IMG/VR virus record: IMGVR_UViG_2874951433_000004
From: a virus
Lineage: Duplodnaviria; Heunggongvirae; Uroviricota; Caudoviricetes
Reading direction: 5' to 3' (one strand)
DNA: 33,353 bases
In this document: piece by piece, positions 835-3,180 of the stretch
Layout: each line of letters opens with the position of its first letter
Position numbering within the stretch: position 1 is the stretch's first letter
Translations under genes and position numbers: made by a program
Notes under the pieces: model-generated
Databases searched by the model: none
The model's input: the letters and a program-made list of their open reading frames with translations, nothing else
Told to the model about the DNA's origin: nothing

Positions 835-2653
835 TGCTATGCCTGTAAATAACAGGACATAAACAGGTTAGTACCTATGCAATTTAACGGTATTTTTCCA
901 AGTATCTATGCAATCCTACACAGATTCTATACAGTATCGACATAGCCCCTTTTTATCATAACTTATTGAAATATATAGAGAATCTGTAAATCCTCTTTTC
1001 AGGGTAAACTGTATCGTGTTAGTCGTTCCTCTCCAGACACTATATATAGTGCTGTATACAGGGATATATAATGATATATAGATAGTTGGTATCAAACCAC
1101 TTAACAGTTTCCTACGTGAAAGTTAGAAAGTGATAGTTATAGTTACCTTGTCAAATCTTCGTAGTCCCTTCTTAAAAAATCGTGAAAGGTAATCTTGTTA
1201 TCTATACAGAATCTACGTAGATGCTTCTTAGTGCGCAAAACAGCTATTATGTTAAAAGCACACTGTGTTTATATCAGTACTGATTTATAAGGGTTTTGTA
1301 TATTGGCTGATAAGAGGCTATACAGCACCTTGAGAGCATGTCTTATAAGTCATTGACACATAAGGTCACAGAAGTTTGTAGCTGTTACAGAGAAAACTGG
1401 ATAGGACTTCACAGAATTATAAAATGTTACAGCTATTGATAGATGAAATCTTCTTGATAGATGCTTTGAAGTGTGGTGAAGCTATATCGTGAATCTGGGG
1501 TACTTAACAGCCATCAATTGAGTGTAGATATTTTTAAGATTATCGGTGAAGGGGAATTTGAAGAGGGCTACTGCGATTTTTATAAAAATTTTCAGAAGCT
1601 AAATAACCACTGTACAGATTTTATGCAATCCTATTAAGCTTCATAGAAAGCTCTGTAGCGAGTTCTAACCCCATTTTTAGGGGTAGTCTATAGGTATGTA
1701 CCACCCACCTTAAAATAAAGGGGTAAAATCGCTTAGAATGTGTTACAGAGCGTCTGAGAAGCTATATTCACAGATTTTACTAAAGTCTCAGACTTCTAAG
1801 TAGTCTTTTTAACAGGAGGGTTCCCCTATGGTCATTATCACCCTCTCTTCCCACTAAGTAAGCTACACAGACCTAGAGAATATGCTCTTTAACGCCTTCA
1901 CAGCATCTATATCAGGTCAACTTCAGAGGTCTTGATATAATCTTCAAAGGCACTTGACAGATAGCTATGAAGTTGCTAGGAAGGGGTATTTAACGGGAGG
2001 AGAGATACGATATAACCCGAAGGGGAGAGTATCATCTTAACAATTATCTTAAGAATAAAACTGAAAAGTTCTTAACAGATGACTACCTAGAAAGAAGGGA
2101 ACGATAAGACCAGAGGTAGTGACCTTGTTAAACAGGCTGTTTCAAAGCTCTTAAGAATCTGTTAAGTAAGGTCATGTGAACAATCTTACCATTTTGTCAA
2201 TGCTTTTGTCTTTGACCTAAATCAACAAAATGTATCGTTTGATATGCTTTTAAACAAAATAGATAAAAAATCTTTTTAGAGGGGCGCTTCGCTTGGGGTC
2301 ACTATGTTCTTTCTCTCCCGTTAAGAGGGAAGTTACAGGGACATTTCAAAGCCCTGATAAGGTAAGCCCGATGATAACAGAAACAGAGAGCAAAACCACT
2401 TATCAACACTGTGAACGAATAACGTAAAGGGCTGGTTAAGAAGGTCGGTTAAGAAGGGAGCTTCCCTTTCTTGGGTGTCGCTCTTCTCCCGCTTAGTGGA
2501 TAGCTAAGAAGGCTTGAAGTTATCTGTGAAGGTACTGGACAGTCTTATATATTGGGTGATTGCAACTCATTGAAAAATAAGTATTTTTAGAGGTTGCTGT
2601 CAGAGAGGTGAATACTTGATAGATGCAGCTTTCTGGTTCTGTCAGGCTATTTT

Positions 2654-2899
2654 TTAATAGATAGCACAAAATGCTAAAGATACCCCTATACCATCTCGTA
2701 CAGGGGGTTTTGAAGGGAGTTTAACGGGGGGGGCTGTGTGGTCATTATCCTTAAGGTCAAGCGTCCATGTGCGACCGAACAATTTAAAGACAACAAGCAC
2801 TCTGACGAGGACGTAGCGGAGTAGCGGTCCTGCAATCAGCCCAACGCCTCCACCAGCCCATACATCAGGTGGCACCAATTCTGGAGGGAGATTTACCAT
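2654..2899 (-). CDS. small hypothetical protein with Pro-rich N-terminus and one predicted transmembrane helix (internal ATG of the 2654..2941 ORF)
   Basis: ATG at 2897-2899 (minus) preceded by AAGGA about 8 nt upstream; hydrophobic stretch GVGLIAGPLLRYVLVRVLVVF; lies in a locally GC-richer patch; no homolog recognised. Confidence 0.25.
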   Translation of the reverse strand: MVNLPPELVPPDVWAGGGVGLIAGPLLRYVLVRVLVVFKLFGRTWTLDLKDNDHTAPPVKLPSKPPVRDGIGVSLAFCAIY

Positions 2900-2913
2900 T
2901 AGTTTTCCTTGTA

Positions 2914-2999
2914 AGACGCTCTCAATAGCATTCTGACACAAAAAAGTAGTTGACCTGAAGAGGCCATTTAACTCGTTACAGAGCGATTGAAGAGGTCTG
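2914..2999. repeat. copy 1 of a paired-arm repeat (left arm agacgctctcaat.gcattct.ac.caaaaaa, right arm ctcgttacagagcgattga.gaggtctg, short spacer)
   Basis: Both arms recur at 4538-4659 with a longer spacer; the arms contain mutually complementary 8-9 nt cores (tcaatcgc / gcgattga). Confidence 0.5.
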
Positions 3000-3103
3000 T
3001 GTGCAATGCAATAACCATACGGCCATTCTCATAGACACGCTTCATATTTTACTCTCCCCATAAACCCATCATACCACAGATGTTAATGAAATGTTAAAAA
3101 TAC

Positions 3104-3132
3104 TTGACATTAGTCTTTGAAAATGCTAGTAT
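3104..3132 (+). promoter_or_regulatory. sigma70-like promoter candidate (TTGACA - 17 nt - TAGTAT) upstream of the 3181 operon
   Basis: TTGACA at 3104-3109, 17-nt spacer, TAGTAT at 3127-3132; AGGA at 3165-3168 ahead of ATG 3181. Confidence 0.4.
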
Positions 3133-3180
3133 TGTATATAAGTTAACAGAGAATTAACAATTATAAGGACTAGCTTATGA

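Follow-up and report, generated by a model that had tools for sequence, protein, structure and literature searches.

A constrained non-coding region related to the genome termini of Felix O1-like phages in a putative enterobacterial phage satellite

Results

The window analysed in this study is a stretch of 33,353 nucleotides from a virus record of the Caudoviricetes (IMG/VR IMGVR_UViG_2874951433_000004). Its bases 1 to ~9650 form a low-GC block (31-44% GC) that belongs to a mobile element, a putative phage satellite, and the non-coding core of this element is the subject of this report. The block adjoins two IS3-family insertion sequence (IS) copies, followed by a lambdoid prophage of 50-60% GC with RusA, Q, four tRNAs and tail genes. 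The core (835-2653) is located between the 3' ends of two convergent genes, a 277-aa gene (1-834, + strand) and a gene for a small single-pass membrane protein (2654-2899, - strand). Neither strand of the core holds an open reading frame (ORF) of at least 60 aa, as a preliminary description of the sequence had claimed, and the few ORFs of at least 25 aa are scattered and mostly have TTG or GTG starts. The same description had treated the whole of 835-3180 as ORF-poor. However, 2654-3180 holds a real - strand gene and two divergent promoters.

Matches to the region, at 80-90% identity, were found in 527 of 5426 complete Escherichia coli genomes, and 34 metagenome loci as well as loci from E. 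albertii and Citrobacter were compared in addition. In E. coli, the element is a low-GC island of 11-12 kb that sits in yecE or between yciI and tonB; RM19259 (NZ_CP046527) and FDAARGOS_1372 (NZ_CP070063) are examples of strains in which it is intact. A large serine recombinase of ~500 aa (domains Resolvase, Recombinase and Zn_ribbon_recom) is encoded at one end of the relatives' elements, and the only structural genes of the relatives are those for a tape-measure protein (TMP) and a Dit-like protein. Searches of the element proteins against Pfam, PHROGs, NCBIfam, PADLOC and PDB sequences returned nothing beyond HNH, TMP and Dit-like matches, and no replicase, primase or Rep protein was recognisable. 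The AlphaFold model of a 184-aa protein had a pLDDT of 44. The relatives thus have the anatomy by which phage satellites are generally defined, that of a small integrative element with its own integrase and without full virion, terminase or replication gene sets, and the earlier assignment of the DNA to an AT-rich, satellite-like element agrees with it. Whole-element contigs of ~11 kb recur in metagenomes; their ends are chromosomal flanks and show no terminal overlap.

A connection to Felix O1-like phages is visible in the tail genes. The TMP (TMP_3; 6785-8755, + strand) is homologous to the TMP of these phages, and the Dit-like tail protein of 257 aa (Dit_like; 8852-9625, + strand) is a gp67 homologue (phrog_3721, E 3e-129). 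The Dit-like protein matched 299 phage records, and all among the matches listed were Felix O1-like (Ounavirinae-type) phages of Escherichia, Salmonella, Shigella, Citrobacter and Erwinia. Its identity to Felixounavirus proteins is 68-76% at the aa level, with Felix O1-type gp67 among the matches listed, and tblastx gave 76% aa identity over 203 aa to MW481326.1 30264-30872. In phage vB_EcoM-Pr103Blw, the Dit-like homologue is encoded directly 3' of the tape-measure gene, in the same order as in the element, and the two tape-measure proteins align. No other protein similarity was found between the element and this phage. The tail module appears to have been captured as a block from an Ounavirinae phage. 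The GC content of Felix O1 is 39% (PMC3185647), compared with 31-44% in the element. Window 6676-6865, which covers upstream DNA and the first part of the tape-measure gene, aligns at 66% identity with the chaperone/TMP junction of the phage.

The core itself is also related to these phages. A megablast search for near-identity against phages and plasmids gave no match. Sensitive blastn aligned window 2072-2191 with 111 Felixounavirus records at 75-93% identity, and in Pr103Blw the match sits at 245-303, within the 581-bp direct terminal repeat. In MW481326.1, with a phage genome of 88 kb, this repeat is annotated at 1-581 and 87841-88421. An nhmmer profile built from the satellites' block 1804-2600 was colinear with repeat positions 58-322 (~265 nt, E 4e-8). 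We refer to window 1890-2190 (+ strand), which is colinear with ~58-340 inside the Felixounavirus direct terminal repeat, as segment X. The core of X, at 2072-2131, holds an inverted repeat CTACCT...AGGTAG around GGGAACGATAAGA. Segment Z (1440-1617, + strand) is homologous to ~485-690 of the Felixounavirus terminal region, across the annotated right boundary of the repeat (581). This segment was found by way of relative L001, in which 12698-12822 (window ~1440-1617 plus 85 nt missing from the window) matched 59 phage records at 73-78% identity over 114-125 nt, with E down to 3e-13; nhmmer gave E 1e-7. Z contains a 14-bp AT palindrome, ATTTTTATAAAAAT, at 1576-1589, which is common to the phage, and the Z block is present in every relative that spans the region. 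Significant nhmmer matches in the 88-kb phage genome fell solely on the terminal repeats or their right edge. The element hence carries what mimicry of a packaging signal predicts, a non-coding segment that is significantly similar to the terminal region of the presumed helper and to nothing else in the helper genome. By sliding local alignment, the individually significant parts of the window are 1515-1634 and 1995-2194 only; a third phage-like patch at 845-880 was not statistically significant and was dropped.

Satellites and phages further share an insertion allele. Several satellites and 33 Felixounavirus records carry, at corresponding positions, a polymorphic insertion of 27 nt, CATGAGGTAGATTCTACCGAATCAACT, which argues for ongoing exchange between putative satellites and phages. 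The insertion forms a hairpin with the core GGTAGA-T-TCTACC (L001 ~12790-12830; phage OK272472.1 581-623), and relative L002 has a further nested hairpin insertion there. At the position of X, comparison of window 2060-2135 with L001, L002, L014, L027 and L042 revealed at least two unrelated alleles. For the second allele, which contains AAGACAACACTCCAGAAAGAGTGTC, the phage collection gave no match; this allele may be adapted to a lineage of helpers that the collection does not cover.

The preliminary description had also drawn attention to a recurring ACAGA-type motif in both orientations. This motif is real and far above shuffle expectation. In 1000 dinucleotide-preserving shuffles of 835-2650, ACAG was expected 14.5 times and is present 41 times (27 on the + strand, 14 on the - strand; z 7.5), ACAGA, the top over-represented 5-mer in an unbiased scan, 18 times compared with 4.7, and the 10-mer pattern YACAGAWTYT, as it had been written originally, 5 times compared with 0.06. 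None of the 1000 shuffles matched the observed counts of these three. Most of the instances first quoted were recovered (920/931, 1206, 1614, 1770 and, inverted, 984), but the one placed at 1392-1405 is actually at 1411, and the inverted instance at 1486-1497 reads ATCTGG and is without the motif core. Alignment of all ACAG sites gave the consensus cTTnACAGa. The 8-mer cTTnACAG (CTTNACAG) occurs 8 times in the core compared with 0.3 expected, and 7-14 times in each of eight relatives (z 10-21). ACAG sites are somewhat better conserved than the background (0.893 compared with 0.826, p 0.004). In line with the preliminary description, the motif resembles a site for protein binding.

The same 8-mer marks the terminal region of the phages. 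Their non-coding terminal region of ~1.67 kb sits between convergent genes, as does the satellite core; the transcription units of Felix O1 have been described (PMC3185647). It is packed with CTGTTAAG and with CTTGTTAG, the reverse complement of CTTAACAG. The density of CTTNACAG is 8.3 per kb in this phage region and 0.84 per kb in the phage genome overall, and, similarly, 4.4 per kb in the satellite core (835-2650) and 0.7 per kb in the rest of the satellite. Four phages carry 11-12 copies each, where 0.3 are expected. cTTnACAG is over-represented 25-35 times in both the satellite and the phage regions, and the flanking consensus of the sites is the same in both.

The core is constrained although it does not code for protein. 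Divergence by codon phase is flat in blocks 835-1481 and 1804-2600, whereas the neighbouring 184-aa gene shows an excess at third positions. Among the same ten sequences, pairwise divergence was 0.12, 0.19 and 0.11 in three non-coding blocks, while in the 184-aa gene codon positions 1+2 gave 0.19 and third positions 0.35; the non-coding blocks thus diverge 2-3 times slower than the third codon positions of a neighbouring gene. ORFs in the homologous blocks of relatives are inserted cargo genes or short chance ORFs only, so homologs do not present the region as coding sequence. Small-protein genes and pseudogenes were ruled out by this ORF survey and the absent periodicity. Because it lacks periodicity and diverges slower than third codon positions, the stretch is non-coding and under purifying selection as DNA or unstructured RNA, and the early statement that it is not decayed coding sequence stands: there is no period-3 signal, diverged relatives have no ORFs, and change is slower than at synonymous-like sites. 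Z and the 2433-2600 block were kept in every relative examined. The most conserved non-coding block, 2160-2260, has 92-95% column identity and is found in 28 of 32 relatives at 94%; no phage counterpart of it was found. A unit of ~83 nt at 2518-2600 is single in the window and forms a tandem pair 12 nt apart in most relatives.

Evidence for structured RNA was not obtained. Rfam gave no match in 700-5600 even at E up to 5, with only chance miRNA/snoRNA rows outside the region, and no tRNA was detected in the region. Sliding RNAalifold compared with column shuffles detected no conserved fold in 835-2600, where consensus energies were near zero and z-scores ordinary; only the terminator area 2601-2764 stood out. 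A large structured RNA is unlikely given these results.

Several other sequence units had been pointed out before. The 17-nt match between 1748-1764 and the reverse complement of 4530-4546 is real and lies within an inverted duplication of 148 nt (1650-1795 and 4498-4644, 72% identity, E 5e-19), which is one of three copies of an imperfect palindromic module of ~130 nt. The inverted copy (1650-1795, - strand) is present at this place in few relatives only. A second, shortened copy (2908-2999, + strand) forms the 5' leader of the small - strand gene, and a third, full copy (4532-4659, + strand) lies downstream of the HNH endonuclease gene and has a folding energy of -46 kcal/mol on one strand and -44 kcal/mol on the other (z about -3.8). 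No significant internal similarity beyond this module and no tandem iterons or tandem repeat arrays were found; CRISPR-like, integron attC-like, shufflon-like and iteron readings were dropped on these grounds. Most relatives carry a different module of 216 nt, C/A-rich and G-poor, where the window has the palindromic copy (L008 1866-2085 in place of window 1628-1807). It is ~94% conserved among satellites that are otherwise 75-90% identical and has no codon periodicity, Rfam match or tRNA. A terminator-like hairpin with a U-run on the - strand, at its left end, suggests that it may be a - strand small RNA gene. The TTAAG and C-rich/G-rich units exist, but their enrichment is unconvincing (TTAAG z 2.3, CTTAAG z 0.9). 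Likewise, the perfect extended -10 element TGATATAAT is present at 1933-1941, but it is unconserved and most relatives have TGATATGAT or another sequence. A sigma-70 promoter reading of the TTnACA-G motif was rejected on manual check, as -10 elements at the right spacing were inconsistent.

Right of the core, the gene for the small membrane protein is recognised in the relatives' alignment (69% mean column identity) and annotated in RefSeq relatives. The protein has 58-62 aa in relatives and 81 aa in the window, owing to a frameshift that a homopolymer of eight G (2726-2733) causes at the 3' end; a terminator-like hairpin of this gene lies at 2706-2683. Upstream, a divergent pair of sigma-70-type promoters occupies 3068-3132 (10/12 matches each, 94-96% conserved). 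The - strand promoter (TTAACA-18-TATGAT with TG, 3097-3068) serves the membrane-protein gene, and the + strand promoter (TTGACA-17-TAGTAT with TG, 3104-3132) serves an operon that starts at 3181 and comprises small unknown genes, the HNH endonuclease, TMP and Dit-like protein genes. A second long intergenic region of 546 nt (4990-5535) holds a terminator-like hairpin at 5294-5314, a cTTCACAGATGA site near 5400 and, at 5433-5511, a palindrome of 79 nt with 91% complementarity between its arms.

The window copy of the element differs from its relatives. Its large serine recombinase is gone, lost to IS elements, and 85 nt that are present in all 30+ fetched relatives (L001 12661-12745) are missing at position 1481. 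The missing 85 nt are the part of segment Z that matches phage terminal-repeat positions ~505-565. Because of both losses, this copy is probably no longer mobile. In 9650-11900, the two IS3-family copies join the element to the lambdoid prophage, and one of them has an ALIL frameshift pseudoknot at 9958-10074. The four prophage tRNA genes (Met, Arg, Thr, Gly) are located downstream of Q, beside an IS110-family transposase gene (13314-13623 and 14321-15517). In the non-coding region of relatives, cargo genes are found, encoding an AP2/HNH endonuclease, a Dam-type N6-adenine methyltransferase and a small serine recombinase (L003 9945-11727; L004 9556-10107; L035/L037), and the non-coding blocks are mosaics of few alleles. 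This suggests that the region doubles as a cargo hotspot.

Discussion

In this study, homology search, which had been proposed as a way to place the element, led to an island family of E. coli and to the terminal region of Felixounavirus. We propose that the element is a satellite dependent on virulent myoviruses of the Felix O1 type (Felixounavirus, Ounavirinae), that 835-2650 acts in cis as its non-coding region, and that this region mimics the terminal region of the helper for packaging or recognition of the termini, and possibly for replication. We would give this proposal a probability of roughly 60%. Judged by its layout, the satellite core is the structural counterpart of the terminal non-coding region of the helper, since it is also located between convergent gene ends. 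X, Z and the motif are common to the terminal-repeat region of the phage, and therefore point to mimicry of cis-acting helper DNA rather than to regulation of the element's own genes. Terminus recognition and packaging are ranked first because the segments with homology are found inside the terminal repeat and at its edge; a function as origin is ranked second and would be compatible with a packaging role. Upon helper infection, the element would excise by means of its large serine recombinase. The helper proteins that process the phage terminal region, potentially the terminase (a TerL for which no TerS is recognisable) and any protein that binds the cTTnACAG arrays, would then recognise the look-alike segments and motif sites of the satellite, and its DNA would be cut and packaged into helper-built particles. 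Possibly, the helper replisome would also replicate the satellite DNA. The parts without phage counterpart (835-1440 and 2200-2650) might represent satellite-specific sites and a landing pad for the cargo genes of relatives.

A number of observations weigh against this proposal. Only about 480 of about 1800 nt, about a quarter, can be aligned to the phage. In the phage X precedes Z, but in the core Z precedes X, which means that the terminal repeat was not simply copied. X is not universal either, as 11 of 32 relatives have a second allele without known phage match, or no X. The phage sites form tandem arrays with a period of 10-12 bp, almost all on one strand, whereas the satellite sites are dispersed (median 78 nt) on both strands, and the literature found gives no function for the phage arrays (PMC3185647). 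A generic comparison of 6-mer spectra was positive (Spearman 0.23) but was discarded as unspecific, because a control, another intergenic stretch of the element, gave nearly the same score. An encapsidated or circular form of ~11 kb was absent from virome/metagenome contigs, and matches in virome collections were only inside longer contigs. Finally, we infer satellite status, packaging and helper dependence alike from comparison with relatives and phages.

The homology to the phage might also reflect a replication origin, if the phage origin lay in the terminal region: an initiator of helper or satellite would recognise the AT palindrome and the cTTnACAG sites, and the helper replisome would copy the satellite. 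We regard this as a tentative alternative, and one that is compatible with packaging. None of the element's own proteins is recognisable as a replicase, primase or Rep protein, its motif sites are conserved, Z contains the AT-rich 14-bp palindrome, and the origin of the satellite PLE sits in the PLE non-coding region (PMC7145576). However, of the features of an iteron origin only an AT palindrome and dispersed conserved sites are present, while tandem iterons (direct repeats of 17-22 bp) and a rep gene are absent and no initiator was identified among the element proteins; in addition, the phage segments concerned belong to the terminal repeat or its edge, and such a repeat serves packaging in the first place. 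Less probable, in our opinion unlikely, is the regulation of the element's own genes by dense promoters, operators or small RNA genes, as suggested in the preliminary description, with the palindromic module acting as an RNA switch like the antisense immunity of P4 or P1. Promoter-like sites number 20 compared with 13.4 expected, TGATATAAT is present, the module at 1650-1795 is complementary to mRNA at 4498-4644, the conserved 216-nt module of relatives, with its - strand terminator, could be a small RNA, and the divergent promoter pair at 3068-3132 is real. Yet this pair is the only strong one and lies outside 835-2650, and the core is located between convergent gene ends, a poor place for promoters and operators. 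The small RNA part finds no Rfam match, tRNA or conserved RNA structure in 835-2600, and the iteron part no tandem iterons. Moreover, the extended -10 element is unconserved, the module copy at 1650-1795 is missing from most relatives, and the homology to the phage terminal repeat would be left unexplained.

Two further explanations accept that homology and give it another role. As a decoy, the helper-like sequences would titrate terminal-binding or packaging proteins of the helper and lower the phage yield. X/Z homology and the shared motif are evidence for a decoy as much as for mimicry, and satellites commonly interfere with helper packaging (PMC11417361). Nothing separates a decoy from productive hijacking; a single-copy chromosomal array with fewer and dispersed sites compared with the phage would be a weak competitor unless amplified, and we consider interference slightly less probable still than own-gene regulation. 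Least probable of all, and in our view improbable, is evolutionary debris, in which scars of cargo turnover and of ancient recombination with a Felix O1-like phage would provide at most homology for cassette swaps and have no sequence-specific function. The region is strongly mosaic with alternative alleles, and its blocks are separated in relatives by insertions of cargo genes (Dam-type methylase, AP2/HNH, small recombinase). Nevertheless, debris would not be expected to diverge 2-3 times slower than adjacent third codon positions, to contain motif sites better conserved than their surroundings, to retain Z and the 2433-2600 block in every relative examined, or to show the 8-mer enrichment in all relatives.

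It is tempting to speculate on the wider group. The balance tips slightly towards an undescribed, widespread satellite family of Enterobacteriaceae (E. coli, Shigella, Salmonella, Citrobacter and E. albertii) that parasitises strictly virulent Felix O1-like phages, as an enterobacterial counterpart of the PLE-ICP1 system, which has so far been specific to Vibrio. The putative family would hijack its helper through a mimic of the terminal repeat and the shared array motif, and would supply its own tape-measure and distal-tail proteins. No papers on satellites of Felix O1-like phages were found, but literature coverage was incomplete and this is no proof of novelty. To our knowledge, PLE-ICP1 of Vibrio cholerae is essentially the only system in which a satellite of a virulent phage has been studied in detail. 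If true, the existence of another, unrelated family in Salmonella and E. coli, and in roughly every tenth complete genome of the latter, would indicate that this lifestyle is general and offer a model that is accessible to genetics. Typing, biocontrol and therapy of Salmonella and E. coli make wide use of Felix O1-like phages, and a resident element that exploits or blocks them would, if true, affect host range, efficacy and gene transfer. Furthermore, the cTTnACAG arrays together with X/Z point to how Felixounavirus, for which no small terminase is recognisable, packages its DNA and recognises the termini, and they make this directly testable.

Comparison with known systems

PLE is a satellite of the virulent myovirus ICP1 in V. 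cholerae; it encodes a large serine recombinase, and its origin lies in an extensive non-coding region with repeats (PMC7145576, PMC11417361). It carries an 89-bp, 71%-identical mimic of the ICP1 pac site, of which a 14-bp identical core is required for transduction, and the ICP1 packaging region itself lies within an ORF-less space of 1.3 kb (PMC7145576, PMC11417361). PLE is the closest precedent. Both have a large serine recombinase (here in relatives, not in the window copy), a virulent myovirus as helper (here presumed), small and mostly unknown genes in a genome of low GC, repeats in an ORF-free region of kilobase size, and a short segment homologous to the helper packaging region. In contrast, there is no sequence or protein homology between PLE and the element, and the RepA_N initiator and iterons of PLE were not found in the element (Pfam, NCBIfam, PHROG, PADLOC). 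The helper of the element would be a phage with direct terminal repeats, that of PLE is a headful pac phage; the element has two helper-like segments and a dispersed 8-mer, PLE one 14-bp core. Unlike PLE, the element carries tail genes of helper type (TMP, gp67-like), and it is known here from sequence alone.

P4 is a satellite of about 11.5 kb, like the presumed satellite described here, and has a cis-acting copy of the helper packaging signal, so that the helper terminase packages it; for the element, this would be the predicted route. The cos site of P4 is a short, nearly identical copy of that of P2, a temperate cos phage. In the element, by contrast, the similarity is 73-93% over 44-125 nt pairwise and about 265 nt colinear by profile, in a much larger non-coding region. 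The tyrosine integrase, alpha primase/helicase, Sid/Psu/Delta and P2-type cos were not detected in it, and there was no DNA match to P2/P4-type phages. Phage-inducible chromosomal islands (PICI), including capsid-forming PICI, differ in a similar way, as a tyrosine integrase, AlpA, Pri-Rep, TerS and a capsid module were not detected in the element. Because their defining genes are absent, the element is placed outside the PLE, P4 and PICI families.

The remaining comparison is with the Felixounavirus terminal region itself. The satellite sites are dispersed on both strands, the order of the segments is reversed and most of the region is without phage counterpart. Nevertheless, both regions are located between convergent transcription units, are enriched in cTTnACAG, share homologous X/Z segments and carry the same insertion polymorphism.

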